A DNA stretch of 64,000 nt, from the sequence record NC_054920.1; one strand, given 5' to 3'. The DNA comes from Escherichia phage vB_EcoM_G9062. The translations under genes were made by a program, and so were the position numbers. Below, one piece after another: positions 9,093 to 40,361 of the stretch (positions are counted from its first letter, which is position 1; every line of letters begins with the position of its first letter). A model generated the notes under the pieces. That model saw only the letters and a program-made list of their open reading frames with translations. It was not told where the DNA came from and searched no databases.

Positions 9093-9122
9093 ATAATACC
9101 ATGGTTTGAACTTGTTGTAAAC
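9093..9122 (-). promoter_or_regulatory. T4-type early promoter (minus strand -35 GTTTACA, 17-nt spacer, -10 TATTAT)
   Basis: plus strand shows tgtaaac at 9116-9122 and ataata at 9093-9098; A/T-rich upstream region; member of the repeated promoter cassette. Confidence 0.5.
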
Positions 9123-9193
9123 AACTTTGTGAAAATTATTTTAGGGAATGATAAGAAGGGAACGATAGCTTAGAATGGTAATATACAGAATGC

Positions 9194-9217
9194 GAGAAAG
9201 AAAGGCCCAGAGGGCCC
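9194..9217 (-). terminator. intrinsic terminator after nrdH
   Basis: minus-strand GGCCC-UCU-GGGCC hairpin followed by UUUCUUUCUC, 3 nt after the nrdH stop. Confidence 0.5.
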
Positions 9218-9220
9218 GTC

Positions 9221-9544
9221 TTAATCTTCTATGATATCTCTATCATATCCAAGTGAAATGAGAGTTTCTTTGAAGTGTTTAATGTTCTTTTGTCTGGAAT
9301 CATTAATGAAAATGACTGGATAACGAATGTTAAGAGATGTGAATCCAGCACGTTTAGCAAGAGATACAATCAGTGGACGATCATACTCAATCTTACCATT
9401 ATTTGTAAGAACTTTATAGAAAGTAAAAGGAGCATTGAGCTCCTTTAGAAGTTTTGTAACTGATTGACATCCAGGACAACGACCTACTTCTTCGGGGATG
9501 CCATAGATTTCAATCTTATTCTTTAAGTTCGAGTTTTGTTCCAC
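9221..9544 (-). CDS. nrdH: glutaredoxin-like protein NrdH (probable GTG start)
   Basis: KIEIYGIPEEVGRCPGCQ glutaredoxin fold with CPGC active site; no in-frame ATG precedes the domain, GTG at 9544 with upstream AGGA; adjacent to nrdG/nrdD. Confidence 0.5.
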   Translation of the reverse strand: MEQNSNLKNKIEIYGIPEEVGRCPGCQSVTKLLKELNAPFTFYKVLTNNGKIEYDRPLIVSLAKRAGFTSLNIRYPVIFINDSRQKNIKHFKETLISLGYDRDIIED

Positions 9545-9827
9545 GAGAAATAATTCCTTGATAAGCCCAGTATGGCGGGTTAACAGAATCCTCACCAGAG
9601 TTTTCTTCAGGAAAATAAACCTGGATAACGAAGCCGGATTCATCAAAGGTGAAATAAGTAGTAGGCAGTTCACCTAACAAATCGGCACGAGCGTTGATTT
9701 CTTCGAGGTCTTGTTCACGTCCAGCCCAGAAGCTTGGGTTCAGACTACATTCATAGAAATAATAGTCATTACCGAACATATCAAAACCATTCCAACTCTC
9801 TACTACATACCGCTCAAAACTAATCAT
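9516..9827 (-). CDS. hypothetical acidic protein (103 aa)
   Basis: ORF whose stop overlaps the nrdH start region in another frame. Confidence 0.3.
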   Translation of the reverse strand: MISFERYVVESWNGFDMFGNDYYFYECSLNPSFWAGREQDLEEINARADLLGELPTTYFTFDESGFVIQVYFPEENSGEDSVNPPYWAYQGIISRGTKLELKE

Positions 9828-9829
9828 AA

Positions 9830-10045
9830 TTAAGCCTTTTTATCAAGAACAGCATTCAGCTTGTTAGTAATTTTATCCAGACGCTCATTAAACTCACTAG
9901 AAGATAATCCCTTTTCTGGAGAAATTAAACTAATCACGAAAAATATAGCAATAAAAGGAATAAGGAAAATAGCTCCAACTGCCATAAACAGAAAGAATGT
10001 TACAGTTGTAAGAAAATCAGCTAAACCTTTACGAAATTTATACAT
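9830..10045 (-). CDS. small membrane protein (71 aa)
   Basis: one strongly hydrophobic helix (FLFMAVGAIFLIPFIAIFFVISLI). Confidence 0.4.
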   Translation of the reverse strand: MYKFRKGLADFLTTVTFFLFMAVGAIFLIPFIAIFFVISLISPEKGLSSSEFNERLDKITNKLNAVLDKKA

Positions 10046-10160
10046 ATTTTACCCTTAATTAATTAACCAAGCATTGATAAGCACTAAACTATATTGGGAA
10101 TAAAATTCTGGACCAAAATGAAAAATCATATCATTTATAGTATCCATAATGTAATTCAGT

Positions 10161-10631
10161 TTAATCATGTTTCCACACCCCATCGGTATTTGACCAAAGT
10201 CGCTGATTATCTGATCCTCGCCACAGCTTTTTAGTCGGAAGATTTTTCTCATACTTCCCATCAATAATAACATCAACATATTTAAGCATTTCTAGCTGTT
10301 TAATATCTTCAAACTTATATCCTGTCCACAACCAAATGCTTTTATTGGGATAAAGATTTTTAATAGTTTGAACCACAGAGTGAATCACGTCTCTGTTATC
10401 AGGATAAAGAGGGTCACCTCCGGTTATAGTTAATCCTTCTATATAATCATTATTCAAACATTCAATCAATTGTTCTAGCGTTTCACCAGTGAATGGAATA
10501 CCATTTCTAGCATTCCATGTTGATTTATTATAACACCCTTCACATTTATGCAAACAACCTGTAACGAAAAGAACGACCCTGCAACCAGGGCCATTCACAA
10601 AATCACAAGGATAAAATCTATCATAATTCAT
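10161..10631 (-). CDS. nrdG: anaerobic ribonucleotide reductase activating protein (radical SAM)
   Basis: 156 aa; CLHKCEGC radical-SAM cysteine triad; immediately downstream of nrdD. Confidence 0.9.
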   Translation of the reverse strand: MNYDRFYPCDFVNGPGCRVVLFVTGCLHKCEGCYNKSTWNARNGIPFTGETLEQLIECLNNDYIEGLTITGGDPLYPDNRDVIHSVVQTIKNLYPNKSIWLWTGYKFEDIKQLEMLKYVDVIIDGKYEKNLPTKKLWRGSDNQRLWSNTDGVWKHD

Positions 10632-13133: not shown

Positions 13134-13243
13134 TAAAATGCCTTGTCAGAAAAAGAATTTTGAGTTTTTTCAAGTATTATAAAACATTTGATGCAATCGC
13201 TTATATTGCCGAATCATTTGGTCAGAAAAAGAATTTTGAGTTT
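12957..13243. repeat. imperfect segmental duplication (about 75-bp unit; one copy carries a 135-bp insert)
   Basis: gtcagaaaaagaattttgagttt occurs at 13145-13167 and 13221-13243; ttcaagtatt(g/a)taaaacatt(c/t)gatgcaatcg(t/c)ttata(c/t)tg(t/c)cgaatcat occurs at 12957-13005 and 13169-13216. Confidence 0.7.
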
Positions 13244-16951: not shown

Positions 16952-16979
16952 ATTAATCTCCTCAGTAGAAAGTAAGAAC

Positions 16980-17009
16980 ATTATACCACATCCTTGTGGC
17001 AAAGTAAAC
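16980..17009 (-). promoter_or_regulatory. T4-type early promoter (minus strand -35 GTTTAC, -10 TATAAT) with inverted repeat in spacer
   Basis: plus gtaaac 17004-17009 and attata 16980-16985; spacer contains ccaca...tgtgg inverted repeat. Confidence 0.45.
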
Positions 17010-18028
17010 TAGTTTAGTGCATTTAGTGCATTGTTCAGTTTAGAACGTTGCTTCGTAAGATTTTTGACTTTTTCTTGAGCTTTTTCTAGCATCTTTTCAG
17101 CTTCTAACACTTCATTAGTTGCTTTAACGAGTTCATCATCTACTGCCTTGATAGACTTCTCAATCGCATCCGCGTGCCATTTTTCAACAGGTTTAAGACT
17201 CGGATTTTCAACAGGAAGAAAATTCACTTTGTTGAATTTCCATGTATCTTTATTACCTGAACTATACATCCAAAATTTAGGATCGTTTGATGAGTAATTG
17301 GATAAATTTAAGATATCTTGCACTTCCTGCTTTTTCTCTTGCGGGACTTCGTCCTTTCTCAAAAAATCGTATTTAAATGAAACGATCATATCAAGTTCAT
17401 ACGTTGTTGTATGTTCCCAATTTCGCTCAAAATGAGGTAAAATCTTAGACTGAACCGCGGCAACTACATCCATATACTTAAATGCTTCTGTCAACTGTGA
17501 TTTAAGGCATTCACAAATTGAAAGAGAATTTTTTGTATTAGGTTTAAAGCTAATTCGTGCAGTTCTGTTATTTTCTTTTAATGGTCTTACTTCCATCTGA
17601 AGAGTATAACCATCAAATTTCAGATTCTTTAAGTTAATATCAGAACCTTTTAATCGACTAGCCGTCGACAAAATTTGCTTTAATTGTTTACGGAATAGAG
17701 CAATAAATCTCCACTCAATACGATAATGATTTGGATTAAAAAATCCTGTTGATAAATCAACCTTACTCTGACCAACGCCTTGAACAAATAGAGGATTTTT
17801 ATAATCAATAGTTTTACAGAAATCGGTGAGCTGCTCACGAGCCGTCATTTGTGTAATATACCCCGCTTTACTAAAATGACGTAACCATTCACTGCTATTC
17901 ATATATTTAAAGTGAATATCACGATTAACTTTATCAGGGTCTAAATTATTTTGGCACAAAAATGTCATAACATCACGAGTATAACTGGCATTACGAACCA
18001 TATCTTCAATTTGAGAACGAGTTTTCAT
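17009..18028 (-). CDS. hypothetical protein (339 aa), paralogue family member
   Basis: shared internal motif with ORF 15950..16951 and C-terminal coiled coil VKATNEVLEAEKMLEKAQEKVKNLTKQRSKL. Confidence 0.5.
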   Translation of the reverse strand: MKTRSQIEDMVRNASYTRDVMTFLCQNNLDPDKVNRDIHFKYMNSSEWLRHFSKAGYITQMTAREQLTDFCKTIDYKNPLFVQGVGQSKVDLSTGFFNPNHYRIEWRFIALFRKQLKQILSTASRLKGSDINLKNLKFDGYTLQMEVRPLKENNRTARISFKPNTKNSLSICECLKSQLTEAFKYMDVVAAVQSKILPHFERNWEHTTTYELDMIVSFKYDFLRKDEVPQEKKQEVQDILNLSNYSSNDPKFWMYSSGNKDTWKFNKVNFLPVENPSLKPVEKWHADAIEKSIKAVDDELVKATNEVLEAEKMLEKAQEKVKNLTKQRSKLNNALNALN

Positions 18029-18939: not shown

Positions 18940-19340
18940 TTTTCAATTTTACTAAATACACAGAATATGATGGAACAGACTATATAAGCACCACACACAG
19001 ATTGAACTAATACCATTCCAAAGAACCAAACAATATTATCAAACAATGTCTGTTTTACGTCGAAAGGACGTAAACTTACAGTAATATTATCGCCTTTTTC
19101 TATTGATGAATACATCTCTGGTGAAATATATTCGCTAAATCTATAACCGTCTTTGAGTTCATATACGGCAATAAACGATAAACTAGACCCCTTTCCTTGA
19201 GTTCCTGTAAGGGTATTAACTACAGTAACATCATAATCTTTATAATGCATATAATCATTAATAGCATAATAACCATATGCAACTACTACACATAAACAAC
19301 ATATCAATAAATTCAATCTTTTAATTATCAACTGTTTCAT
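18936..19340 (-). CDS. membrane protein (134 aa)
   Basis: hydrophobic N-terminal (LLICCLCVVVAYGYYAI) and C-terminal (VWFFGMVLVQSVCGAYIVCSIIFCVF) helices. Confidence 0.45.
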   Translation of the reverse strand: MKQLIIKRLNLLICCLCVVVAYGYYAINDYMHYKDYDVTVVNTLTGTQGKGSSLSFIAVYELKDGYRFSEYISPEMYSSIEKGDNITVSLRPFDVKQTLFDNIVWFFGMVLVQSVCGAYIVCSIIFCVFSKIEN

Positions 19341-19395
19341 AATAATCTCAATTAAAAGGGCTTAGAACCATTATACCATCCTTGGTATAAAGCGG

Positions 19396-19923
19396 TTATG
19401 CGAGTACCGTCTTTAACCGTTCTTCAAACTTCCGAAGAGTATTCTGGCGTTCAGCTCTTTGCTTTTTGTAAGTTTCAATACGCTCTGAAATGAGAGTGTA
19501 TCGTTCATTTACTGATTCTTTCATAAAATCAGGAATTTCACGAGAAGCTTTAATCTCGTCAAATTTATCAATAACTGCTTGCTCTTCAGCAATTAAGTTA
19601 TCATACATCAAAATATCTTTCTTGATGAACTCAATATCTTCTTGAGTTACACGAGATAATTTAGATGCTTTATCCTTTTTGTACTGTTCGTTAGTATCAC
19701 GAGACCAGTGTAATGTACGATTTTTATTCGTATTCTTGTAAATTTCTACAATACCAATCTCATCGATAATAACGATCCAATTCCAACGAGATTTGTAAAT
19801 TTGTCCTCCGTCAACCGTGATTTCACCTCCGATTGAGATGTCATTAAAGAACTTGCTTTGTGCTTCAGATTTAAATTTACCATCGTTGTAATTTACCAGG
19901 TTGAAAATATCTTTAGCGTTCAT
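19396..19923 (-). CDS. hypothetical protein (175 aa)
   Basis: ORF with GGAGGA RBS, downstream of PeSL-like promoter; charged C-terminus. Confidence 0.45.
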   Translation of the reverse strand: MNAKDIFNLVNYNDGKFKSEAQSKFFNDISIGGEITVDGGQIYKSRWNWIVIIDEIGIVEIYKNTNKNRTLHWSRDTNEQYKKDKASKLSRVTQEDIEFIKKDILMYDNLIAEEQAVIDKFDEIKASREIPDFMKESVNERYTLISERIETYKKQRAERQNTLRKFEERLKTVLA

Positions 19924-19951
19924 TTTGTGTTCCTCCGTAGTTGATAGTTGT

Positions 19952-19981
19952 ATAGTACCACAGAGGAACAGTCTTGTAAAC
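19952..19981 (-). promoter_or_regulatory. T4-type early promoter cassette (minus strand GTTTACA ... TACTATAC)
   Basis: plus tgtaaac 19975-19981, atagta 19952-19957; shares gttgatagttgtatagtacca core with the elements at 21874, 25470 and 36138. Confidence 0.5.
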
Positions 19982-19983
19982 CA

Positions 19984-20298
19984 CTAAAAGAAACTTCTTT
20001 CACAATTTTTTCCACTGAACCATGCGCTTACCGCTTTCTTAGTCTCAGGAGCAGTGTTATCCATAAACCATTCAAAGGCAGCCTTTTTATGATTCTGGAG
20101 GGCTTCTCGGGCTTTAATCTGCTCACGGTCTATTAACACTAACATATGAGCCTTTCTTGTCACCATGGGCTTCTTATGATTTTTTGAATACTCCCAGTCA
20201 TTTGTCCATCGCATTGTCGTTGCGAACTTAAATACTGCTTCTTTAATTTTAGTTTCGTAAATTTCACGAGCCTTTGAGTATAACATCATTACCTCCAT
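19984..20298 (-). CDS. hypothetical protein (104 aa)
   Basis: ORF; no motif recognised. Confidence 0.35.
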   Translation of the reverse strand: MEVMMLYSKAREIYETKIKEAVFKFATTMRWTNDWEYSKNHKKPMVTRKAHMLVLIDREQIKAREALQNHKKAAFEWFMDNTAPETKKAVSAWFSGKNCERSFF

Positions 20299-20388
20299 TC
20301 ACCAGTTTAATTCTAGTCATCTTTTTAATGGCAGTCCATATAATCTATTTCTGAACTGCCTTTTTGTCATAGAAGTCCTCTTATGAAT

Positions 20389-21375
20389 TTATTTCAGAAG
20401 AGTAACCTCAGCGATTTCTTCCCAACCGTTTTTGTCGGTCATAATAAAGTCAGCAAGATAAAGAGCAGTACGCAGTGAAACATTGCGTAAACGATTAACA
20501 TTAACTTTCATCCATGATAATGCTTTATAAGTTTCTTCATCAGAAAGACCGCGCTTTTGCATCATGTCGGTTGAAAGAATAACATCTTCAACCCTGACCA
20601 TAATTTCTTCATTAGTGTGAACACCCAAATCTAAATAAACTGAGCGGGACACTAATGCTTGTAAATGTGGAGCAAGTTTAGTACCGCGGTCTAATTCGCG
20701 GTCAATGTCAACGTTTGTGATAAAAACAATCGTTCCTTTAAATTCAAACTCACGGTCAATGCCTTTTTCTTCTAAGTAAGAAGATGCAGTGCTCCAGCAG
20801 ACTTTACGGGTCTCTCCAGTGTCCAGAGCAGCTTTTAGAAGATTAAGAATGTCCATATCAGAGAAAACATCCACATCATCAATCAAAAGGACAGAGTTCT
20901 CTTCACGATTATACCAAAGCTGCTCATAAAGACCAATACCAGAGATTTTACCATTAATGCTTTTATATTCAATGTATCCAATATCGTTTGCTTTATTTAA
21001 AGCTTTATCTAAAGAATACGTTTTACCAATACCTGCTGCGCCAGAGATAATTAATGAACGAATATTTCCATTAATAATACCATTCGTCATCATTCCCATA
21101 ACATTAAATCTTTTATTAATGCGGGTTTTCATATCTTCATATGATTCTTTAACTTCTTCAACTTTTACACCATCATATGAAATATCTGATTTGTAAACCC
21201 AAACACCACGACGTTTACCGTCAATTTCAACAAAAACTTTACCATCTCCTTGTGCATCTACCGGAGCATTATCTGGGAACCATTCGCCTAAGAGCTCAAA
21301 AGTTCCAGAGATTTCTTTACCGAAGTAGATACCCTTATTGATAGTTACAGTTTTCATTTTATTCTCCAATCTCAC
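20389..21375 (-). CDS. P-loop NTPase (AAA-like ATPase), 328 aa
   Basis: Walker A GAAGIGKTYSL and Walker B-like VLLIDDVDVF. Confidence 0.55.
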   Translation of the reverse strand: MRLENKMKTVTINKGIYFGKEISGTFELLGEWFPDNAPVDAQGDGKVFVEIDGKRRGVWVYKSDISYDGVKVEEVKESYEDMKTRINKRFNVMGMMTNGIINGNIRSLIISGAAGIGKTYSLDKALNKANDIGYIEYKSINGKISGIGLYEQLWYNREENSVLLIDDVDVFSDMDILNLLKAALDTGETRKVCWSTASSYLEEKGIDREFEFKGTIVFITNVDIDRELDRGTKLAPHLQALVSRSVYLDLGVHTNEEIMVRVEDVILSTDMMQKRGLSDEETYKALSWMKVNVNRLRNVSLRTALYLADFIMTDKNGWEEIAEVTLLK

Positions 21376-21393
21376 ATTTGTTTTGATAGGGTA

Positions 21394-21423
21394 ATAGTAT
21401 CACACTACTACCCTTTTGTAAAC
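21394..21423 (-). promoter_or_regulatory. T4-type early promoter with stem-loop (PeSL-like)
   Basis: plus tgtaaac 21417-21423, atagta 21394-21399, flanked by agggta ... taccct inverted repeat. Confidence 0.5.
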
Positions 21424-21426
21424 AAT

Positions 21427-21690
21427 TTATTTTAACGTTCGCCAAATTTTTACTGCTTCACGGCGAGATACTTCTACAGCTCCAAGTTCTACAGCTTTTT
21501 GGCGTCGGCGAGCGTGTAAGTCATAATGTTTAATGCGTTTATCTTGAAACCAAGAACGTTTCATTCCTATTGCTTCTGCCATTTCATGAAGCTCTTCAAT
21601 ATCTCCATCAGTGAACATATGACAATTTTTAGTTGGATGACCGCGAAGTTTCCATCCATGATTCATTAAAACATCTACGTAAACTGTCAT
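21427..21690 (-). CDS. hypothetical protein (87 aa)
   Basis: ORF; no motif recognised. Confidence 0.35.
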   Translation of the reverse strand: MTVYVDVLMNHGWKLRGHPTKNCHMFTDGDIEELHEMAEAIGMKRSWFQDKRIKHYDLHARRRQKAVELGAVEVSRREAVKIWRTLK

Positions 21691-21836
21691 TGATTCTTCT
21701 CCAAATAAGTTTCGATAATTTTCTGAGCGAGATAAACTGCATTATCTTCAGTTGCATCTTCTAAGAAACTTTCAAAACACTCTGAAATTTCTTCTGTATC
21801 AATCAACTTTTTTACTTCAATTGGTGTAATTTTCAT
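21687..21836 (-). CDS. small hypothetical protein (49 aa from MKITPIEV)
   Basis: ORF track's upstream part is a read-through translation of the promoter; GGAAAA RBS before the internal ATG. Confidence 0.3.
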   Translation of the reverse strand: MKITPIEVKKLIDTEEISECFESFLEDATEDNAVYLAQKIIETYLEKNQ

Positions 21837-21873
21837 TTTGTTTTTCCGTTTAAGTGTTTGTTTTGATAGTTGT

Positions 21874-21903
21874 ATAGTACCATAAAGCTTTATGCTTGTA
21901 AAC
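21874..21903 (-). promoter_or_regulatory. T4-type early promoter cassette (GTTTACA ... TACTATAC)
   Basis: plus tgtaaac 21897-21903, atagta 21874-21879; upstream A/T tract ttttgtgaaaaattttt. Confidence 0.5.
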
Positions 21904-21926
21904 AATTTTGTGAAAAATTTTTGAAA

Positions 21927-21953
21927 TAAAAAAAGGGAGCCCGAAGGCTCCCT
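21927..21953 (-). terminator. intrinsic terminator (GGGAGCC-UUCG-GGCUCCC + U7)
   Basis: minus-strand perfect 7-bp stem, UUCG loop and UUUUUUUA tail, 2 nt after the stop of ORF 21955..22941. Confidence 0.65.
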
Positions 21954-21954
21954 A

Positions 21955-22941
21955 TCATTTATAATAACTTCGGTGGTTTTCAAGATAAACCCTCTCAAGG
22001 AAGTCATCCCAAAAACCCATGTCTACTTTTTGCTGCATACCGTTCTTAGAAGCTTCAGTAGATGCTGCTTCTACTTGATCGACCACATCTTCCAAAAACT
22101 CTTGAACCGTTTTAAATGGATGTTTACCCAACTTCACGTCGAGAATAAATGGAGCATCTTGGAGTGGATAAACCAAGTCACCAGTTTTGTAAATTTCCAA
22201 TAGTTGGAGTCCACCACGGCAAGCATGGCTCAGAGCTTTCCAGTCAATACCTTCATTGGCTTCGGCCTTACGAGCACGTTCACCGTATTCAGCATCTAAT
22301 TTGTTCAGTGACTGCTTAAGCTCAATAAGAGAAAGCGTTGTCTGATATTTACGACCCAACACTGTGTAGAACGTCTGTGGGCCTGTTTTCTCATGATTAT
22401 GGAACACCCATTCACAGAATTCGTTTTCTGGAAGACGATGCTTAATATCTTCAACTTTAGTACGACGCTGCTTAATAGAACCATCTTCTTGGTAATCAAC
22501 CCATTGCTCAGGGATTTGATTAACTACTTTCAATACATCACGTAATGCAGCCAAACGAGAACCCTTAACGCCGTATTTAGAAGCTTGCTTACGGACATAT
22601 CCTAAATAGGATTTCATGTTAGTCGTATAAAAACGAGAACGGTTGTCTTGAATAAACTTCCACACATCAGGCAAATCAGATTTAACCACTAGTTCAGGTG
22701 GAGTGTGAAGCATATCTAACGCTACAGTTTCACCATCTGCTGCTAATTTAAAGAAATATTTAAGACTGTATAGTTCATGGTCAATATCATCTTTAGTGTT
22801 TTTAGATGATGTGTTGTTAGTGTTTTTACTCATGTGCTCTTTAACATTTCCGATAAGAATATCACGAGCAGGAGGAACAAAGATTTCTTTAAAATCTACA
22901 TCAGATTCTGGGGGTAGAAGTTCCATAAAGATGACTACCAA
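21955..22941 (-). CDS. hypothetical protein (328 aa)
   Basis: large ORF in hypervariable block; start uncertain; no motif recognised. Confidence 0.45.
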   Translation of the reverse strand: MVVIFMELLPPESDVDFKEIFVPPARDILIGNVKEHMSKNTNNTSSKNTKDDIDHELYSLKYFFKLAADGETVALDMLHTPPELVVKSDLPDVWKFIQDNRSRFYTTNMKSYLGYVRKQASKYGVKGSRLAALRDVLKVVNQIPEQWVDYQEDGSIKQRRTKVEDIKHRLPENEFCEWVFHNHEKTGPQTFYTVLGRKYQTTLSLIELKQSLNKLDAEYGERARKAEANEGIDWKALSHACRGGLQLLEIYKTGDLVYPLQDAPFILDVKLGKHPFKTVQEFLEDVVDQVEAASTEASKNGMQQKVDMGFWDDFLERVYLENHRSYYK

Positions 22942-22965
22942 AATAGCTTTTCATTACTGTTTTCA

Positions 22966-23427
22966 TCATTCAGCCTTATATTCAATAACAGGACATACTT
23001 TAGCTTTACGAGCTTTTAAAAATTCAACGATAATCGATTTCTTGGGTTGAATAGGAGGTAAACCTTTATACGCCCTATCAATATTTTCTACGTGTAAAGC
23101 ATAATCCTTTTTCCATTTATAATCTTTATATTTTTCACGCAGTTGTGCAGGAATAACAAATGAACCGATAATAAGTAAAACAAGCAAAATGGCAAGTATA
23201 AATGCTGATGGAATAAGAGTCCATAAACTACCAAAAATAAGCCATTTCTGTATGATTTCTGCGCAGATGATAGTTAGACCTACGAGTATAGTACATCCGA
23301 AAAAAGAAACGAAAAATGTAGGAATAACAATAGACCAAAAATACGCGCACAGTGTCTTAGGTCGTTTCCATTCATCATTAAACATTTTGAATAATTTATA
23401 ATGCCAAGAGTTTTCATTAATAATCAT
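22966..23427 (-). CDS. polytopic membrane protein (153 aa)
   Basis: three or more hydrophobic helices. Confidence 0.45.
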   Translation of the reverse strand: MIINENSWHYKLFKMFNDEWKRPKTLCAYFWSIVIPTFFVSFFGCTILVGLTIICAEIIQKWLIFGSLWTLIPSAFILAILLVLLIIGSFVIPAQLREKYKDYKWKKDYALHVENIDRAYKGLPPIQPKKSIIVEFLKARKAKVCPVIEYKAE

Positions 23428-23429
23428 AA

Positions 23430-23951: not shown

Positions 23952-23957
23952 ATTTCC

Positions 23958-24524: not shown

Positions 24525-24659
24525 AATTACATACTCCTTTGAATAATATCAATAATGTTGTTCACCAGATTATAAGTAAACATTGGGTAATTATATTGAA
24601 TCATCACATACACAACAAACAAAACTTTCATTCTCTTCTCCTTGACCGTTGACAAGATT

Positions 24660-24689
24660 ACTATACCATAACCTTGTCAACTTGTAAAC
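24660..24689 (-). promoter_or_regulatory. T4-type early promoter with stem-loop (GTTTACA ... TATAGT)
   Basis: plus tgtaaac 24683-24689; inverted repeats gttgacaag (24652-24660) and cttgtcaac (24676-24684) bracket the -10. Confidence 0.45.
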
Positions 24690-24854
24690 CATTAAATGAC
24701 GTTTTCAATAAAATTCTGAAGCTTTGTGTGAGCATCAACCATAATTTTCATTTCTTCCTTTGCGAAAGCTGTACCTCTTTCCCGAGCAGAATACTCATAG
24801 TCAGAAACTGCATTAGCATATTCTTCAATTAGCTTCATTAAAAACATTTGCTTT

Positions 24855-25290: not shown

Positions 25291-25442
25291 GCCATATGAG
25301 TTGCAGCTTCATCACACATATCATAACGTTTCTTAAGAAGTTCTACAAGTTCTTCACTAGTAACTTCATCCATGTCGACGAAAAAATCACCATTAATGAT
25401 GACGTAGATATTTCCTTCTTGATTGAGTGCTTCAATTTTCAT
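25254..25442 (-). CDS. hypothetical protein (62 aa from [10 protein letters not shown])
   Basis: AAGAGGAGAA RBS precedes the internal ATG; ORF track's first 15 codons translate the promoter. Confidence 0.35.
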
Positions 25443-25469
25443 GATGTTCTCCTCTTTATCCGATAGTTG

Positions 25470-25500
25470 TATAGTACCACAGCTCAAACGGAAAGTAAAC
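25470..25500 (-). promoter_or_regulatory. T4-type early promoter cassette (GTTTAC ... TACTATAC)
   Basis: plus gtaaac 25495-25500 and gatagttgtatagtaccacag core. Confidence 0.5.
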
Positions 25501-25510
25501 CGGCAAAATG

Positions 25511-25532
25511 AAAAAAGTCTCCCGAAGGAGAC
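25511..25532 (-). terminator. intrinsic terminator (GUCUCC-UUCG-GGAGAC + U6)
   Basis: minus-strand hairpin with UUCG loop and UUUUUUC tail, after the stop of ORF 25538..25924. Confidence 0.6.
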
Positions 25533-25537
25533 TAATG

Positions 25538-29649: not shown

Positions 29650-29676
29650 GTTATTCTCCTCTTAACTGATAGAAAA

Positions 29677-29706
29677 ATTATACCACAGTCAAGAGGAAAA
29701 GTAAAC
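29677..29706 (-). promoter_or_regulatory. early promoter of regB (minus strand GTTTAC, 18-nt spacer, TATAAT)
   Basis: plus gtaaac 29701-29706, attata 29677-29682; AGAGGAGA RBS then ATG. Confidence 0.55.
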
Positions 29707-29708
29707 AG

Positions 29709-30029
29709 TTATTCTTTAAATCTAATCAATTTATTCATAGACTTTGTAACTTCTGCACGAACCTCATGTAAGTTTTTAAGCTGTTCAAGACTTTGCTCAT
29801 AGTAAGCAATTTCATCTTCTTCGAGGCAGTCCTGTGAATCTTCTTTAAGATAACGTGCATAGTCCTGGAAAGCTTTACGGACTACTTCCTGGAAGTCATC
29901 AAGACTTTGAATTTTCTTAGGAGCAACAGATACACGACGAGGGGCAGTATAATACTCATAACCAAACCCTGCGCTTAATTGAGCCATTAGTATTTTTCCT
30001 CTGGTTGGAACACTGCGCGACAAGCCCAC
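29709..30029 (-). CDS. hypothetical protein (106 aa)
   Basis: ORF upstream of regB. Confidence 0.35.
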
Positions 30030-31216: not shown

Positions 31217-31749
31217 TTAATATTACAGCAGCAGTGTACAGTGTCAATATGGACACTATAAATCTTATCCATATCAGGAGATTTGACAGGCTCATCAATT
31301 ATATACAAAATTCGCGAAAGCGATAAACCTCTGAACTTGCTTCCTTTATTACCAATAAAACTGCGCACAGAATCAGTAAATAAACGAAAACGTATATCAT
31401 CATTAGAATAACGCGAAAATTCCTTTTTAATATTATCTGCGGAAATTTTAGCGTAAGCTGAAGTATTAGAAAGAACAATAACTGTTCCACCGTCATACAA
31501 CCAATTAGCGGCAAAATTAGTTACTGCAGTTGATTTACCAGATTGACGCCCACCATCTAGTCGAAGTGTACAATACTGTTTAAGTAAGTCTTCAAATGGC
31601 GGGATATATTCGTTTTTACAAATTTCTTCTACTCTAGCATCAGAATGGTGTGTAAAAGCATTCATCAGGGATAGATAAGGACCAGTTAAAAATGTTCTCA
31701 TTTTGTTCTCTCTAGGTTTGGGCCATTCCATGGCGCATGAATTGTCCAT
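31162..31749 (-). CDS. hypothetical P-loop-containing protein (up to 195 aa)
   Basis: Walker A-like GGRQSGKST and IIDEP; true start may be MRTFLTG at about 31701. Confidence 0.35.
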   Translation of the reverse strand: MDNSCAMEWPKPRENKMRTFLTGPYLSLMNAFTHHSDARVEEICKNEYIPPFEDLLKQYCTLRLDGGRQSGKSTAVTNFAANWLYDGGTVIVLSNTSAYAKISADNIKKEFSRYSNDDIRFRLFTDSVRSFIGNKGSKFRGLSLSRILYIIDEPVKSPDMDKIYSVHIDTVHCCCNIKCCIGGITRPQFFVIGMQ

Positions 31750-31846
31750 TTCTGTATTTACCCATTACCGCACTTGGGCTCGACCTTATTACAGGTTGGC
31801 GGGAATCCCTCACAGAATCATGAGGTCCAGGTTATTCCCATGTTAT

Positions 31847-32263
31847 TTAAATGTAAATATTTTTGCCGTAATACTTATACCAGTGTGGCTTCATTAAAAT
31901 TTTTTCATCGAGTCGTTGTTGACTCAACTTAATAGCTGATTTGCATGGATTATAATCATTTTTCCATTCTACTGGAATATCGCTGATGTCAGGAACTTCA
32001 GTATCTTTTATACTGAACCCGCGTTTTAAGCATTCCGTTATAATGTCCGATTGACGCTTTCGCAAAAATTCTAACTTATCGTAAAAGAAAGTAACATGAC
32101 CAGAACCTAAAATAAATTTAGAAGATATTTTAAAATCTTTAACGCGCTTACCGTTTGCCACATGCTTACGAACTATACCAAAAACACGCGGCAATTCACG
32201 GTATTCTGCGATTAAATGTTGATCAGCAAGTTCAGATACTAAAGTCAAATTAATACGAGTCAT
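31847..32263 (-). CDS. denV: endonuclease V (pyrimidine dimer DNA glycosylase)
   Basis: 138 aa; [28 protein letters not shown] matches my recollection of T4 endo V. Confidence 0.85.
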
Positions 32264-32287
32264 TTTATCCCTCCAAGTAACTGTGAA

Positions 32288-32318
32288 TATACTATCACAA
32301 TTCTAGGAGAAAGTAAAC
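32288..32318 (-). promoter_or_regulatory. early promoter upstream of denV (GTTTAC ... TAGTAT)
   Basis: plus gtaaac 32313-32318; -10-like tagtat; GGAG RBS follows. Confidence 0.4.
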
Positions 32319-32322
32319 AACT

Positions 32323-32853
<531 letters not shown>

Positions 32854-33309
32854 TTAAAAGAGGCTGTTCATTATTCGGTAAAGTGAAGGACCCATCACAT
32901 ATTGCCACTGAGTACGAGGAATAAGAGCAAAAGCATCCATCTCTGGAATCATAACGCCATCTTTATTTTCAAAATAAGACTCGCAATGGCAATTTCTAAA
33001 CATCTCATGCTCTACTGGAATCGTATAATAAAATAACTGTAAGTCTTTATTACTAGAATATTTAAATACACCTAAGTCTTCTAGAAGGTCTGGATTATAA
33101 TCGATAAAACCAGTCTCTTCTGAGCATTCTCTTTTTGCAGCTTCCAGTGCATTCAAATCAGAACTTTCTACGCGGCCCTTTGGAATATCCCAGCGATGTG
33201 CCATCATTCCAGGCTTACGAGAACCAGTAACCCGACCCATAAATAAATCTTTATCTTCTGTCATAAAGATAATACCAGCTGATAGTGTTTTCATTTTAAT
33301 TTCCTGCAT
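32854..33309 (-). CDS. nudE: Nudix hydrolase
   Basis: 151 aa; Nudix box GRVESSDLNALEAAKRECSEETGF; adjacent to e as in T4. Confidence 0.7.
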   Translation of the reverse strand: MQEIKMKTLSAGIIFMTEDKDLFMGRVTGSRKPGMMAHRWDIPKGRVESSDLNALEAAKRECSEETGFIDYNPDLLEDLGVFKYSSNKDLQLFYYTIPVEHEMFRNCHCESYFENKDGVMIPEMDAFALIPRTQWQYVMGPSLYRIMNSLF

Positions 33310-35729: not shown

Positions 35730-35800
35730 AGTATTTCCTTAGGTTAATTGAGATTTAAAATCCGTAGGAGTATAATACTCTATCGTCAAATTATAGGCTC

Positions 35801-35830
35801 ATAATATCTCAATCATGAGCCTGCGTAAAC
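35801..35830 (-). promoter_or_regulatory. early promoter with stem-loop (GTTTAC ... TATTAT)
   Basis: plus gtaaac 35825-35830; ggctcat...atgagcc inverted repeat around the -10. Confidence 0.4.
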
Positions 35831-36094
35831 TTATTTCATATTATTGAAATATTCTTCTGCGATTTCGTCGTTATCATGGTAAACTTTAGAAGACAGTTTA
35901 ACATAACCTTCTGCTGTGAACATATTAATCACAACTTTTACAGTATACCACTGACCGTCTTCATTACCCATTACTGCGTAAGTTTCAAACATCGGATGAT
36001 CAGGACCGATAACTTTAATATCATTCACTGTACGACCGAAATCTTCTGAAACGCATTTCATAAAGAAGTTGAACAGTTCGCCGTAATTATCCAT
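35831..36094 (-). CDS. hypothetical protein (87 aa from MDNYGELF)
   Basis: internal ATG with GGAGAA RBS; ORF track's N-terminal 40 codons translate the promoter (FFTKLFTS motif). Confidence 0.4.
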   Translation of the reverse strand: MDNYGELFNFFMKCVSEDFGRTVNDIKVIGPDHPMFETYAVMGNEDGQWYTVKVVINMFTAEGYVKLSSKVYHDNDEIAEEYFNNMK

Positions 36095-36137
36095 TTCATT
36101 CTCCAAGTTGTTTTCTGTATCAGTAGTTGATAGTTGT

Positions 36138-36167
36138 ATAGTACCATGGAAGAACAGAGATGTAAAC
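36138..36167 (-). promoter_or_regulatory. T4-type early promoter cassette (GTTTACA ... TACTATAC)
   Basis: plus tgtaaac 36161-36167, atagta 36138-36143, gttgatagttgtatagtacca core. Confidence 0.5.
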
Positions 36168-36289
36168 AGTTTTGTGAAAAAATTTTTAGGGAATTCTAGG
36201 GCAGGGATGGGCAATTAAAGGATAGGTAATATATTATAAAGGGTATAAACTAAATGATGCCTAGAGAGGTCCAGAAAGGCCTAGATACC

Positions 36290-36314
36290 AAAAAGCCCTA
36301 TCATTTAGATAGGG
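36290..36314 (-). terminator. intrinsic terminator (CCCUAUC loop GAUAGGG + U5)
   Basis: minus-strand hairpin followed by CUUUUU, 8 nt after the stop of ORF 36323..36886. Confidence 0.5.
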
Positions 36315-36322
36315 ATTTAAAA

Positions 36323-36886
36323 TTATTTACCTAGTTTACTTATTATAGCTTCTGCAGCAGCTTTTAGCTTAGATGCAGTGTTAATACGATTTTTAATTTC
36401 AGTATACGCATCGCCAAGAACATCAAGGCTATCAGAATAAACACTTACACTATTGCGTTCGCTATTTGAAATAGAACCTTTAGTTTTGCGGTCAAAATCG
36501 GTGTACACGTCTTGAAGATCGCGGGCTGCCTTCTTTGCATCATCCAATGCATCAAGAGCTTTATTCAAAGCATTAACGTATTTTTTAGTGTCGAACATAT
36601 TCTTAGAAATTTTAACAGGTGCGCGTTCAGGAGTAGCTAACACAGATTTAGGAACCTGAGCGCCAGATGCCAATTTCTTAGAAATTTTGAAAAATGCTTT
36701 ATTGAATTTATTTTCTTGACTCATTGTAAAAGAACTATTATCGATGTTGTACATTTCAATAGCTTTAGCTTTCCACTTAAGAAAATCGCCGCGGTCTTTT
36801 GGGTCCAATTGGAAGAATACTTTAGTAAGATCTGCTTCAGATGGTAATTTTGCTGCTTCGGTTAAAAATTCGGCATAGGTTTTCAT
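36323..36886 (-). CDS. internal-protein-like capsid-targeted protein (187 aa)
   Basis: N-terminus MKTYAEFLTEAAKL resembles the T4 IP capsid-targeting sequence (MKTYQEFIAEA) with prohead-protease-type LxE site. Confidence 0.5.
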   Translation of the reverse strand: MKTYAEFLTEAAKLPSEADLTKVFFQLDPKDRGDFLKWKAKAIEMYNIDNSSFTMSQENKFNKAFFKISKKLASGAQVPKSVLATPERAPVKISKNMFDTKKYVNALNKALDALDDAKKAARDLQDVYTDFDRKTKGSISNSERNSVSVYSDSLDVLGDAYTEIKNRINTASKLKAAAEAIISKLGK

Positions 36887-36974
36887 TTAAAATCCTTGAA
36901 ATAATTTATCGGTTGGTTATTAATTATTTATTACTTTGTTACTATCCGTAACAGCGTTATCCGAGTGATTCAAA

Positions 36975-37004
36975 CTAAAAAGCCCCAACCTTTCGGTCGG
37001 GGCT
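36975..37004 (-). terminator. intrinsic terminator, copy 2 of a repeated 33-bp element
   Basis: minus-strand AGCCCCGACC-GAAA-GGUUGGGGCU + UUUUUAG; identical to the element at 37531-37559. Confidence 0.65.
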
Positions 37005-37011
37005 AAGAATG

Positions 37012-37485
37012 TCATTTGATTTGTTTAGCAGACCAAATGCGGTCTTTAATAATTTTTTGGATGTCTTCAACATACTCAAGAGAGTGAACATGTGGATTAT
37101 CTTTGAAACTATAAGCACGGGCTAACTTTTGGCCTTCGGTTTTGATTACTAAAAGCTCTTTAAGGATAGCTTCATATTTGGAGATAATTCCTTTAACAAT
37201 ATTTTTCTCTTGTGTGACTTTAGGATCTTCTTTAGGAGCAGGTTTACCTGAAGCCTTTGCAAAAGCAGCTCCAGTAGCAACTAAACTTTTCCAAGCCATA
37301 CTAACTGCATTCCCTGTAAATCCTTCGGCTTTCATATCACGAGCAAATTGGAATCGTGATTCATCGGAAGCATCTTTATAGGAATATTTACCCGCGGCAA
37401 TGGCAGCTTTTGCAACAGCTTGAATTTCAGTGCTAGATGCTTCATTTAACACCGCTTCATTTAAAAATTGAGTATATGATTTCAT
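37012..37485 (-). CDS. internal-protein-like capsid-targeted protein (157 aa)
   Basis: N-terminus MKSYTQFLNEAVLNEA is CTS-like; Ala/Lys-rich body. Confidence 0.5.
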   Translation of the reverse strand: MKSYTQFLNEAVLNEASSTEIQAVAKAAIAAGKYSYKDASDESRFQFARDMKAEGFTGNAVSMAWKSLVATGAAFAKASGKPAPKEDPKVTQEKNIVKGIISKYEAILKELLVIKTEGQKLARAYSFKDNPHVHSLEYVEDIQKIIKDRIWSAKQIK

Positions 37486-37530
37486 CTTATTTCCTGTTTT
37501 AATTCGGGGTTTTAATATACTTATTTATAC

Positions 37531-37559
37531 TAAAAAGCCCCAACCTTTCGGTCGGGGCT
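37531..37559 (-). terminator. intrinsic terminator at the 3' end of the tRNA/stable-RNA operon, copy 1
   Basis: same hairpin + U tract as 36975-37004. Confidence 0.65.
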
Positions 37560-37564
37560 AAGCC

Positions 37565-39490: not shown

Positions 39491-39675
39491 TATTCACCTT
39501 TAGAAATTTTATCCATAACAATAGCAATTAAACCAATTAAAAATGCTACTACAAGTGAAAACACATTTTCTGCTGTAGTCAATAATCCACATATAAATCC
39601 AACAAACATTGAAAAACTAAAAGCGGAAGCAGAAATTGCAATAGCAACATTTCGAATTAATTCACAACGTTTCAT
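39490..39675 (-). CDS. small membrane protein (61 aa)
   Basis: two hydrophobic segments; GAGGAG RBS; PeSL promoter upstream. Confidence 0.35.
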   Translation of the reverse strand: MKRCELIRNVAIAISASAFSFSMFVGFICGLLTTAENVFSLVVAFLIGLIAIVMDKISKGE

Positions 39676-39703
39676 TTTATTCTCCTCAGTAGTAGATAGG
39701 GTA

Positions 39704-39733
39704 ATAGTATCACTACCCTATCTAAAAGTAAAC
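39704..39733 (-). promoter_or_regulatory. PeSL-like early promoter (GTTTAC ... TACTAT inside a 9-bp inverted repeat)
   Basis: plus agataggg-ta ATAGTATCAC ta-ccctatct then gtaaac 39728-39733. Confidence 0.55.
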
Positions 39734-39967
39734 TTATTTTTTACGAAAAATTGATTTATTTTCTGCTGCCCATTTTTCAATAACTGCAGCAGGACCAGTA
39801 ACAACAATTTTATCACCGTAATCTTCTGCGGCGAGTTGACCGAAATTATCTAATGCATCACGAAGAACTCCATGAGGCATTTCACCCATTTTATCTTTCT
39901 TGCCAGTGTAAATAAACTCAACTTTTACATCAGCAGTTTCAGCAATAAATTCTTGGTAAGTTTTCAT
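39734..39967 (-). CDS. internal-protein-like capsid-targeted protein (77 aa from MKTYQEFIAE)
   Basis: N-terminus MKTYQEFIAE is identical to the T4 IP capsid-targeting consensus; ORF track has a 4-codon upstream extension. Confidence 0.55.
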   Translation of the reverse strand: MKTYQEFIAETADVKVEFIYTGKKDKMGEMPHGVLRDALDNFGQLAAEDYGDKIVVTGPAAVIEKWAAENKSIFRKK

Positions 39968-40001
39968 TTTGATTTCCATTTGGTTTTGTTTTGATAGGGT
40001 A

Positions 40002-40031
40002 ATAGTATCACAACTAAAACCCTATGTAAAC
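40002..40031 (-). promoter_or_regulatory. PeSL-like early promoter (GTTTACA ... TACTAT)
   Basis: plus tgtaaac 40025-40031, atagta 40002-40007, gatagggta...accctat inverted repeat; upstream caactttgtgaaattattttaaat is shared with the element at 40333. Confidence 0.55.
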
Positions 40032-40043
40032 AACTTTGTGAAA

Positions 40044-40301
40044 TTATTTTAAATCTTCTAATCGTTTCTTCATCTTAGAACCATTTTTAGCAATTTCTCC
40101 TGCATCGGAGCATAATGCTAAAAGTGCTTTAACTTTAGTTTGGTCTCCTTTAAAAGATGAAGGATCGACCGCAGCAGCAAGTTCTTTAATACGAGAGAAA
40201 AGACGCTCAGCTTCAGCTAAAGCCATTCCAAGCTTTACTTCCATACCGTGGGAAGATTCAGTGATAGTAGTTTTTGTAGCAAACTCTTTGAAAGTTTTCA
40301 T
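40044..40301 (-). CDS. internal-protein-like protein (85 aa)
   Basis: N-terminus MKTFKEFATKTTITE is CTS-like with a candidate I/L-x-E cleavage site. Confidence 0.45.
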   Translation of the reverse strand: MKTFKEFATKTTITESSHGMEVKLGMALAEAERLFSRIKELAAAVDPSSFKGDQTKVKALLALCSDAGEIAKNGSKMKKRLEDLK

Positions 40302-40332
40302 TTTTATTTTCCTAATTAATTTTGATGAGGTA

Positions 40333-40361
40333 ATAGTATCACTACCTCATCAGTATGTAAA
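40333..40361 (-). promoter_or_regulatory. PeSL-like early promoter (GTTTACA ... TACTAT within a perfect 10-bp inverted repeat)
   Basis: plus tgatgaggta ATAGTATCAC tacctcatca then tgtaaac 40355-40361. Confidence 0.55.

Follow-up and report, generated by a model that had tools for sequence, protein, structure and literature searches.

T4-type early promoters, most with an embedded hairpin, occur fourteen times in the nrdC-ipI region of a Tequatrovirus

A single module is present 14 times, always on the minus strand, between positions 9093 and 40361 of the window that we analysed (64,000 nt, one strand, of the Tequatrovirus, or T4-like phage, Escherichia phage vB_EcoM_G9062, NC_054920.1), and these elements are orthodox T4-type early promoters, usually with a small embedded hairpin. 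Their identity as promoters is established by sequence and by orthology to T4, and their immediate-early timing is taken over from the T4 literature. The module is already known: it corresponds to the PeSL element in its T-even form (Repoila 1994; Arbiol 2010; Comeau 2014). What we add to the published picture is modest, namely a regular hairpin geometry across T4-like genera and a junction-matched comparison of breakpoints. The account as a whole, in which early promoters carry hairpins that would insulate transcription units and occasionally recombine with one another, is in our view very probably correct. The initial annotation had listed about 14 repeated early-promoter and stem-loop cassettes on this strand and matched them to PeSL elements: there are exactly 14, all of its coordinates are 3' ends of -10 hexamers, and the match is borne out by a T4-type early promoter with an embedded stem-loop, the PeSL or PeSL-like element of the Krisch group. 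We name the copies 9093 to 40333 after these 3' ends, or by alternative names as in 35801/35829. Each copy occupies an intergenic gap of the nrdC-mobD-tk-vs-e-tRNA-ipI early region, with an SD and ATG next downstream, and the ORFs behind the copies encode 34-333 aa (Table 1).

The pattern GTTTAC-N18-TAnnAT is found in identical register in all 14 aligned copies, and together with the position weight matrix (PWM) this agrees with the GTTTAC -35, 17-18 nt spacer and TACTAT/TATAAT -10 proposed at the outset; the 18-nt gap is invariant, and equals 17 when the -35 is taken as TTTACW. The -10 hexamer reads TACTAT in eight copies, TATAAT and TATTAT in two each, and TAGTAT and TATAGT in one each, and is extended by TG at -15/-14 in every copy except 35829. 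An exact fit to the T-even PeSL consensus TTTACW-N17-TAYWAT is seen in 11 of the 14, the departures being TTTACG in 35829, TAGTAT in 32317 and TATAGT in 24688. The CTATC initiation region is conserved, as is a predicted +1A. Upstream of the -35, from -40 to -60, all copies carry an A/T-rich UP tract whose consensus consists of A/T runs; the A/T richness of the tract first described is thus general, and its exact sequence, AAATAATTTCACAAAGTT, is confined to copies 40030 and 40361, with the variant TTTCACAAA (repeat family D4) in five copies. The division of the near-identical cores into two types of four also stands, with four matches to core type 1, GTTGATAGTTGTATAGTACCA, at up to three mismatches where 0 are expected, and four to core type 2, GATAGGGTAATAGTATCAC, where 0.02 are expected. 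In an independent repeat search, the four largest families of direct repeats consisted of these elements. When both strands were scanned with a 71-column PWM, no further copy scored above 8 bits, the copies themselves reaching 30-62 and shuffles at most 19; leaving one copy out of a 51-column PWM gave 20-43 bits for 13 copies and 4.9 bits for copy 35801/35829, the weakest member. A generic sigma-70 scan showed no enrichment (87 found against 82.5 expected), and the signal is therefore specific to the T4 family.

Table 1 Predicted early promoters and associated features in the window
Feature	Position	Strand	Copy	Core/UP type	Hairpin	z	T4 position	Remarks
Early promoter, 55.6 homologue	9081..9146	-	9093/9121	UP TTTCACAAA (family D4)	Not significant	+0.5	41705	-35 9117-9122; -10 9093-9098; predicted +1 near 9086
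Early promoter, nrdC.4 homologue	16968..17033	-			5-bp stem CCACA/TGTGG within spacer	-2.4	50972	
Early promoter, nrdC.8	19925..20005	-	19952/19980	Core type 1	8-bp inverted repeat TGTTCCTC/GAGGAACA around -10	-5.8	53942	SD covered by 3' arm
Cassette, promoter to promoter (DUF4031)	21370..21862	-						49-aa ORF 21687-21836; DUF4031 ORF 21427-21690
Early promoter, nrdC.10	21382..21447	-	21394/21422	Core type 2	11-bp inverted repeat over -10	-3.1		Downstream boundary copy of DUF4031 cassette
Early promoter, 49-aa ORF and DUF4031 ORF	21862..21927	-	21874/21902	Core type 1; UP TTTCACAAA			55383	Upstream boundary copy of DUF4031 cassette
UUCG-loop intrinsic terminator	21934..21953	-						Directly upstream of promoter 21902
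Early promoter, mobD.2	24648..24713	-	24660/24688		13-bp palindrome (1 mismatch) GTTGACAAGGTTA/TAATCTTGTCAAC centred on -10	-5.7	57989	
Early promoter, mobD.5	25459..25524	-	25470/25499	Core type 1	Weak	-1.3	58779	
UUCG-loop intrinsic terminator	25516..25533	-						Directly upstream of promoter 25499
Early promoter, regB	29655..29730	-	29677/29705		12-bp inverted repeat (1 mismatch), spacer with SD region			
Early promoter, here driving denV	32265..32342	-	32288/32317		SD within hairpin	-3.7	66497	Orthologue of T4 ipIII promoter; ipIII and ipII missing in this phage
Degenerate half element	35750..35790	-			GAGTA-TTA-TACTC inverted repeat			Lacks -35; between promoter 35829 and e.6
Early promoter, most divergent copy	35789..35854	-	35801/35829		8-bp inverted repeat GGCTCATG/TATGAGCC over -10	-3.9	70358	Lacks TGn; orthologue of T4 e.7 promoter; e.7 missing here
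Early promoter, e.8	36126..36191	-	36138/36166	Core type 1; UP TTTCACAAA	Weak	-0.8	70695	
Early promoter, trna.4	39692..39757	-	39704/39732	Core type 2	11-bp palindrome AGATAGGGTAG/(C)TACCCTATCT centred on -10	-4.4		
Cassette, promoter to promoter (ipVI-like)	39714..39991	-						Gene 39734-39979
Early promoter, 81-aa internal-protein gene	39990..40055	-	40002/40030	Core type 2; UP TTTCACAAA			73571	
Early promoter, 85-aa Ip5-like internal-protein gene	40321..40386	-	40333/40361	Core type 2	10-bp palindrome GATGAGGTAG/(C)TACCTCATC	-5.0	73938	T4 promoter upstream of ipI; hairpin compensatory relative to copy 39732

Positional orthologues in T4 were found for 12 of the 14 elements, which share strand and intergenic position with their T4 counterparts and include the regB promoter, a "typical early promoter" in the literature. 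Nothing essential differs from the T4 early promoters, with which the elements have in common the UP tract, the GTTTAC -35, the 17-bp spacer, the TGn, the TA(C/T)(A/T)AT -10 and conserved positions around +1. Those of T4 were reportedly described by Liebig & Ruger, by Wilkens & Ruger and by Miller in 2003. They have been characterised as 'uber' promoters in which UP, -35, TGn and -10 are joined by extra consensus regions (Hinton 2010, PMC2988021), and dRNA-seq of T4 gave the early -10 motif TGTG(A/G)TA(C/T)(A/T)AT with a preference for +1A. Relative to T4, copy 21422 and the 39732/40030 pair are extra because the cassettes are present, and the absence of ipIII/ipII and of e.7 leaves 32317 and 35829, respectively, in front of the next gene, which they now drive. 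The T4-orthologous elements precede conserved genes (55.6, nrdC.4, nrdC.8, mobD.2, mobD.5, regB, e.8, trna.4 and others), and the variable cargo is limited to the DUF4031 cassette and the internal-protein genes, among them the 81-aa gene behind promoter 40030, which is ipVI-like with an MKTYQEFIAE leader. The idea that the genes downstream were recently acquired therefore does not hold for most of them, given the orthology of 12 elements and the conservation of their genes. The chief value of the analysis thus lies in correct annotation: the 14 sites provide the predicted early transcription map of this phage. They also show which cargo truly varies, namely the DUF4031 cassette and the two internal-protein loci, and it is there that functions in anti-restriction or host range are most plausible.

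That the -10 often sits within an inverted repeat, as had been remarked from the outset, is supported by two measures: the inverted-repeat score is at least 8 in 7 of the 14 copies, compared with 5% of random 63-nt windows (binomial P = 2e-6), and the folding z-score averages -3.2, compared with -0.2 in controls (P = 9e-7), with 10 of 14 copies below -2. Folding found no significant hairpin in the remaining four (9121, 21902, 25499 and 36166). Outside its consensus positions, the spacer of about 10 of the 14 copies is complementary to a downstream segment, which is the SD in three cases and the discriminator/+1 region in the others, and the -10 is therefore enclosed in a hairpin-forming inverted repeat. 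Since transcription starts downstream of the 5' arm, the promoter's own transcript cannot contain the hairpin, which is possible only in read-through RNA or extruded DNA. The same arrangement is seen family-wide. Among 73 T4-like loci, the early strand carries the pattern GTTTAC-N18-TAnnnT 294 times and the opposite strand 11 times, and 52% of the 248 unique sequences fold with a z below -2, compared with 7% of controls. Here too the spacer forms the 5' arm, and the segment from the -10 through +1 forms the 3' arm, which in a second class lies at the SD instead; across these phages the arm sequences vary and their complementarity is kept (covariation). The preferred dyad axis falls between -12 and -11, and the register i+j = 49 is used by 15 of 131 non-redundant promoters where 0.6-1.7 are expected, a count as high being reached in none of 500 permutations. 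The hairpin geometry, spacer against discriminator/+1 with its dyad at -12/-11, is thus very regular in T4-like genera, and to our knowledge it has not previously been quantified or tested.

As a potential mechanism, we propose that the unmodified host sigma-70 RNA polymerase would read the 14 promoters immediately after infection, a timing expected from the T4 literature, and that each would start a short minus-strand early transcription unit. The most likely role of the hairpin is that of an insulator between adjacent early units, in which it would attenuate or pause read-through RNA, or alternatively end and stabilise it. Where the 3' arm includes the SD, read-through RNA would be kept untranslatable, and locally initiated RNA would be translated. 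A control of this kind is known for T4 e, soc, 49 and I-TevI, where a helix in the read-through RNA sequesters the SD and the promoter lies inside the helix, local transcripts without the 5' arm being translated (Uzan & Miller 2010, PMC3014915). Copies 19980, 29705 and 32317, the only three of the 14 whose hairpins include the SD, have the same geometry, although the T4 cases concern late promoters and are experimentally shown, whereas here an early promoter is involved and the structure is predicted. The embedded hairpins have no T tract and are followed by A/C-rich rather than T-rich sequence, and are therefore not canonical intrinsic terminators. A UUCG-loop terminator does lie directly upstream of copies 21874 and 25470, so that the terminator-promoter-ORF units initially ascribed to several copies are seen in these two and not in the other 12; a G/C-rich hairpin with a T tract at or just upstream of the -35 is limited to the same two copies (21902 and 25499 by their alternative names) here, and is also present in Krischvirus-like loci. 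One could also speculate that fixed-dyad complementarity and the SD-reaching class together amount to a general 'self-insulating promoter' device of T4-like phages. We think this rather doubtful; if true, RNA from upstream would fold over the promoter, and the fold would attenuate it, stabilise it or prevent translation of the next gene from it, so that early genes would be expressed solely from their own promoters.

Because the 40-70 nt module recurs between genes in one orientation, it would offer short homology for occasional recombination, and exchange from promoter to promoter could add, delete or swap single-gene cassettes. We compared indel breakpoints against ten relatives, as had been suggested with the initial annotation, with a divided outcome. 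An indel boundary lies on 6-8 of the 14 elements, breakpoint clusters coincide with elements in 7 of 66 cases compared with a uniform expectation of 2.9% (P = 0.003), and in-register promoter-to-promoter junctions are found at four loci. Gene starts that bear an element are nonetheless not enriched for breakpoints relative to other gene starts (6/14 vs 23/58, Fisher P = 0.53), and six elements have no breakpoint in any of the ten comparisons. The DUF4031 cassette, missing from T4, RB51, VEc74, L004 and L007, has both junctions just after CTATCAA (+1 to +5), and the T4 nrdC.10 promoter consists of the upstream part of copy 21902 and the leader of copy 21422, joined after CTATCAA. The in-register pattern also holds at 39732/40030, where T4 and RB51 lack the ipVI-like cassette and N2 and VEc74 have another sequence in its place; at 32317 and 35829, the junctions fall at about +1 to +10. 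Promoter-to-promoter recombination is one route of shuffling among several, and not the dominant one.

A stronger form of the PeSL model would see in the elements regulatory cassettes that are mobile and serve, in evolutionary terms, mainly to target recombination, including that by which promoter-bounded mini-circles are excised and integrated, and that are the principal drivers of shuffling here. We regard this as possible but on balance unlikely. It fits the clean in-register cassettes, the multi-allelic hot spots directly downstream of 32317, 35829 and 39732-40361 (4-5 states among ten relatives), the degenerate half element and the demonstration of mini-circles in RB49/phi1. It also fits the finding that UP types and core types occur among the paralogues in all four combinations, a mosaic that could reflect convergent selection instead. 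The comparison of gene starts, despite its small sample, tempers the view that the elements drive shuffling, as do the six elements without a breakpoint, and most boundaries lie at homing-endonuclease genes (mobC, I-TevII, mobD, segB-like), overlapping stop/start junctions and repeated terminators. Moreover, distant genera have the DUF4031 cassette at the same position, and a single deletion may therefore account for the difference from T4.

The regular geometry might instead point to a role at the level of DNA, with a cruciform or transient hairpin centred on -12/-11 helping or gating promoter melting, or serving as a target for a structure-specific nuclease (endonuclease VII) that seeds recombination. 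The dyad preference at the very position where melting starts, the freedom of the arms to vary as long as they remain complementary, and the exclusion of the hairpin from the promoter's own transcript are all compatible with this, but we consider it improbable: the stems are short and AT-rich, their 4-18 nt loops are poor for cruciform extrusion, the quasi-palindromic consensus TGTGATACTA may simply nucleate the preferred register, and the second class, in which the spacer pairs with an SD 20-30 nt downstream, is better explained at the level of RNA. Cruciforms and endonuclease VII are also without mention or experimental support in the cited literature. It is very unlikely that the palindromes are operators bound by a dimeric phage protein that shuts off the early promoters 2-5 min after infection. 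Operators do classically take the form of a palindrome over the -10, and how T4 shuts off its early promoters is not completely understood, but the arms are unrelated between copies (GTTGACAAG, GGCTCAT, AGATAGGGTA, TGTTCCTC, CCTCTTGACTG) and covary rather than being conserved, which rules out a common operator sequence at all sites; the repeat is missing from four promoters, which excludes a sequence-specific binder and leaves a structure-specific one as the only kind that would fit. Coincidental resemblance within A/T-rich intergenic DNA, conceivable in a genome of 33-38% G+C where shuffles yield as many generic sigma-70-like matches, is refuted by the core counts, the PWM scores, the strand bias and the retention of the elements at orthologous sites in T4 and distant genera.

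With early promoters carrying insulating hairpins as the preferred reading, the elements can be placed among the PeSLs described so far. Those of RB49/phi1 (Arbiol et al. 2010, PMC2839356) are similar in combining an early promoter with a stem-loop, in bounding cassettes by two elements, and in that the stem of their commonest subclasses overlaps the -10 or lies between it and the -35; they differ in their near-perfect TTGACA/TATAAT and in their efficient termination at G/C-rich stems with T tracts behind them. In the Krischvirus-like loci that we examined, the hairpins enclose the -35. The PeSL authors themselves regard the T-even elements as analogues rather than homologues, and 'PeSL-like' elements of the IP locus go back to Repoila et al. 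1994, as described in Arbiol 2010 (PMC2839356). The PST/T4 PeSLs, with the consensus TTTACW-N17-TAYWAT, build on T4 early promoters and carry stem-loops that are weak and AT-rich (Comeau, Arbiol & Krisch 2014, PMC4122927). Their stem-loops are placed just upstream of the promoter in the 2014 figure legend (PMC4122927), whereas most stems here overlap the -10, spacer against discriminator; an upstream terminator is present in only two copies here, and breakpoints were no more frequent at the elements than at other gene junctions in our small comparison. The elements here share with the PST/T4 PeSLs (PMC4122927) the consensus, the AT-rich upstream region, the SD and start codon at the 3' end, weak AT-rich stem-loops of variable size, a setting in hyperplastic regions, including both internal-protein loci, and degraded half elements beside indels. 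The half element of the present phage is homologous to the VEc74 sequence upstream of e.6.

Gap-free alignment of the 14 minus-strand modules that the initial annotation had described as a family of promoter cassettes confirms the proposed -35 GTTTAC, the spacer, which is exactly 18 nt, and the -10, TAnnAT, in all 14 copies; each coordinate listed for a copy is the final base of a minus-strand -10 hexamer, and the A/T-rich upstream tract is present throughout. The -10 hexamers are TACTAT (eight copies), TATAAT (two), TATTAT (two), TAGTAT (one) and TATAGT (one), with TG at -15/-14 in 13 of the 14 copies and CTATC conserved around the predicted +1A. Both near-identical cores were recovered at the sites claimed for them, with four matches each (0 and 0.02 expected by chance). 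A 71-column PWM separates the family, the copies scoring 30-62 bits, and on both strands no site beyond these 14 exceeds 8 bits, while shuffles reach 19 at most. When a 51-column PWM was evaluated by leave-one-out, 13 copies scored 20-43 bits and copy 35829 was the weakest member at 4.9 bits. Two weak intragenic minus-strand matches to the latter PWM, at 3089 (15.1 bits) and 8676 (11.7 bits), are non-members and were not counted; the early-promoter-like match at 3089 is conserved in T4 at 35697. The 14 copies also stand out among the matches to a loose regular expression (24 on the minus strand versus 6 on the plus strand of the window), and the four largest direct-repeat families of an independent repeat finder are the elements themselves. 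A generic sigma-70 scan is not enriched: it gives 87 hits where 82.5 are expected and 57 where 57.5 are, and it does not pick out the family; the signal is therefore specific to these elements. The claim that several copies directly follow a UUCG-loop terminator holds for copies 21902 and 25499 but not for the other 12, so that "several" was generous. Copies 9121 and 36166, which lie in unusually long intergenic gaps, have CCCT-repeat pyrimidine-rich tracts upstream (9150-9185 and 36190-36230, minus strand) ending ATTCCCTAAAA, which might be candidate rut-like sites.

Over 19000-26000 the window shares 99.9% identity with Escherichia phage vB_EcoM_G2540, and some 500 further Tequatrovirus records match this segment at 95-99%. 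The GC skew of the window is negative to ~44 kb and positive beyond, which fits the T4 layout of minus-strand early/middle genes followed by plus-strand baseplate genes; the stretch that holds the elements extends from gene 55 to ipI and 57B and takes in nrdC, mobD, tk, vs, e and the tRNAs. Because promoters are not annotated in the GenBank and RefSeq entries for T4, orthology to the T4 elements was computed. Twelve T4 copies lie at homologous positions (see table), and one more T4 element, GTTTAC-N18-TATTAT, which the PWM threshold missed, sits at the place matching window 35750-35790. The regB promoter, a typical early promoter according to the literature, corresponds to the T4 copy at 62796. 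The elements match the UP/-35/TGn/-10 anatomy and additional conserved positions of T4 early promoters (PMC2988021), as well as the early -10 motif TGTG(A/G)TA(C/T)(A/T)AT and the +1A preference found by T4 dRNA-seq, and by analogy with the T4 literature they are probably transcribed early. Arbiol et al. 2010 (PMC2839356) described the PeSLs (promoter-early stem-loops) of RB49 and phi1 as an early promoter plus a stem-loop, with the stem mostly between -35 and -10 or over the -10, and reported analogous elements, built on T4 early promoters and with weaker AT-rich stem-loops, at T-even internal-protein loci; Comeau et al. 2014 (PMC4122927) gave the consensus TTTACW-N17-TAYWAT for the PeSLs of PST and T4. 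Matched against these descriptions, the core reading of the modules as PeSL-like, T4-type early promoters with a stem-loop is correct. They constitute an already described class in a new isolate, and the interest of the finding is therefore low. The initial annotation thus stands in its observation and its core interpretation, but three of its secondary claims were overstated. An Rfam scan of 8800-41000 returned nine tRNAs only, with no match on the elements.

Coordinates of the elements, their T4 counterparts and neighbouring features (window coordinates unless marked T4)
Feature	Position	Strand	Description
Element copies	9093-40361	minus	14 copies
T4 copies	T4: 41705, 50972, 53942, 55383, 57989, 58779, 62796, 66497, 70358, 70695, 73571, 73938
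Genes behind copies			55.6, nrdC.4, nrdC.8, nrdC.10, 49-aa ORF + DUF4031 protein, mobD.2, mobD.5, regB, denV, e.6, e.8, trna.4
Internal-protein genes behind copies			two, ipVI-like and Ip5-like; leader MKT(Y/F)xEF
DUF4031 cassette	21427-21836		DUF4031 protein, 87 aa (E = 8e-22), and 49-aa ORF
Internal-protein-like ORF	37012-37485	minus	157 aa, MKSYTQFLNEA
Internal-protein-like ORF	36323-36886	minus	187 aa, MKTYAEFLTEAA
GAAA-loop terminator hairpins	36281-36320, 36968-37007, 37523-37562	minus	three copies
Direct repeat	13145-13167, 13221-13243		perfect, 23 nt, GTCAGAAAAAGAATTTTGAGTTT; spacing 76 nt

The -10 had been said to sit often inside an inverted repeat. Indeed, a gapless repeat scoring at least 8 surrounds it in 7/14 copies, a score reached by 5% of random 63-nt windows (binomial P = 2e-6). 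When each copy was folded between the end of its -35 and position +25, z averaged -3.2 in the copies and -0.2 in control windows (P = 9e-7); ten of the 14 copies have z < -2, and their folding energies range from -13 to -21 kcal/mol. The arms of copy 40361 (GATGAGGTA/TACCTCATC) are compensatory relative to those of copy 39732 (GATAGGGTA/TACCCTATC). We extended the comparison to T4-like viral contigs (73 loci, 1.47 Mb), in which the pattern GTTTAC-N18-TAnnnT was counted 294 times on the strand of the early genes versus 11 times on the opposite one, and in which 52% of 248 unique promoter sequences have z < -2, versus 7% of controls. The pairing profile has the same hairpin architecture family-wide, with a second class in which the spacer is paired with the Shine-Dalgarno. 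The promoter upstream of nrdC.10 is retained across genera, its arms varying in sequence while complementarity is kept (for example GATAGGACTA/TAGTCCTATC, GGTATGAG/CTCATACC and GGAGCT/AGCTCC); Krischvirus-like loci have at this site instead a G/C hairpin around the -35, followed by T's. The dominant register, whose dyad axis falls between -12 and -11, is found in 15/131 non-redundant promoters, where 0.6 are expected from within-sequence shuffles and 1.7 when halves are swapped between sequences, and 0/500 permutations reach 15. These sequence comparisons argue that the hairpin is selected and not accidental.

The 5' arm is formed by the non-consensus part of the promoter spacer, and the 3' arm comprises the 3' half of the -10, the discriminator and the positions up to about +5; in copies 19980, 29705 and 32317 it extends as far as the Shine-Dalgarno. 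Since the 5' arm lies upstream of the start site, the hairpin is absent from the promoter's own RNA and is possible only in read-through RNA or extruded DNA. Acting on read-through RNA, it could attenuate it, stabilise its 3' end or mask it from translation; such masking would have a parallel in the late promoters of e, soc, 49 and I-TevI, which are documented to be embedded in hairpins (PMC3014915). A role of the inverted repeats at the DNA level is possible but unsupported. We rejected the embedded hairpins as canonical intrinsic terminators, given that they have no T tracts and that A and C predominate past the 3' arm. That the arms differ between copies and covary excludes a sequence-specific operator.

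The proposed coincidence of breakpoints with the elements was examined against ten comparators, among them T4, G2540, RB51, N2, VEc74 and four Tequatrovirus contigs, the only close ones that IMG/VR gave, which limits the power of the analysis. Clean in-register events occur at four loci. Segment 21370-21862 is missing from T4, RB51, VEc74 and two contigs, and the T4 promoter at this locus consists of copy 21902 through CTATCAA plus the leader of copy 21422; the ipVI cassette (39714-39991), between copies 40030 and 39732, behaves in the same way. At copy 32317, T4 homology stops ~10 nt past the start site; ipIII/ipII are absent from the window. Copy 35829 is the same promoter followed by four or five alternative ORFs, or none, depending on the phage. 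Between promoter 35829 and e.6 lies a degenerate half element (35750-35790) with the inverted repeat GAGTA-TTA-TACTC and no -35, homologous to VEc74 sequence upstream of e.6. The elements thus appear both able to act as recombination sites and to have done so, and the cassettes may have originated by homologous exchange between copies. The claimed coincidence holds for these junctions but not as an excess over other gene starts: in the interval from -10 to +110 around the gene start, 6/14 starts with an element have a breakpoint, versus 23/58 element-free starts (Fisher P = 0.53). Although 7/66 breakpoint clusters lie at elements, against a uniform expectation of 2.9% (P = 0.003), this enrichment arises because indels concentrate at gene boundaries, and nothing more; a preference for the elements is not shown with ten comparators. 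Many other indel boundaries involve homing-endonuclease genes or repeated terminators.

The genes behind the elements, previously put forward as candidate recent acquisitions, are mostly conserved T-even genes. About 160 phage records carry the DUF4031 cassette, T4-like phages of Enterobacter and Klebsiella among them; each record has it at a single place, and in Karamvirus-like loci it adjoins nrdC.10. Between 57B and trna.4, VEc74 has four small ORFs (31658-32920), N2 two (31945-32586), the window two and T4 one, and we therefore regard this stretch as an array of internal-protein cassettes that grows and shrinks. The three GAAA-loop terminator hairpins flank the two internal-protein-like ORFs, and in-register indel boundaries fall inside these terminator copies (36314 to 37527 versus T4, N2 and VEc74; 36306/36314 to 36974 versus G2540, RB51 and the viral contig locus L071); the segments between them are terminator-to-terminator cassettes. 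A late-promoter motif, TATAAATA, follows the 37536 terminator. Near pin/49, the 23-nt direct repeat coincides with a recurrent 13004/13167 breakpoint.
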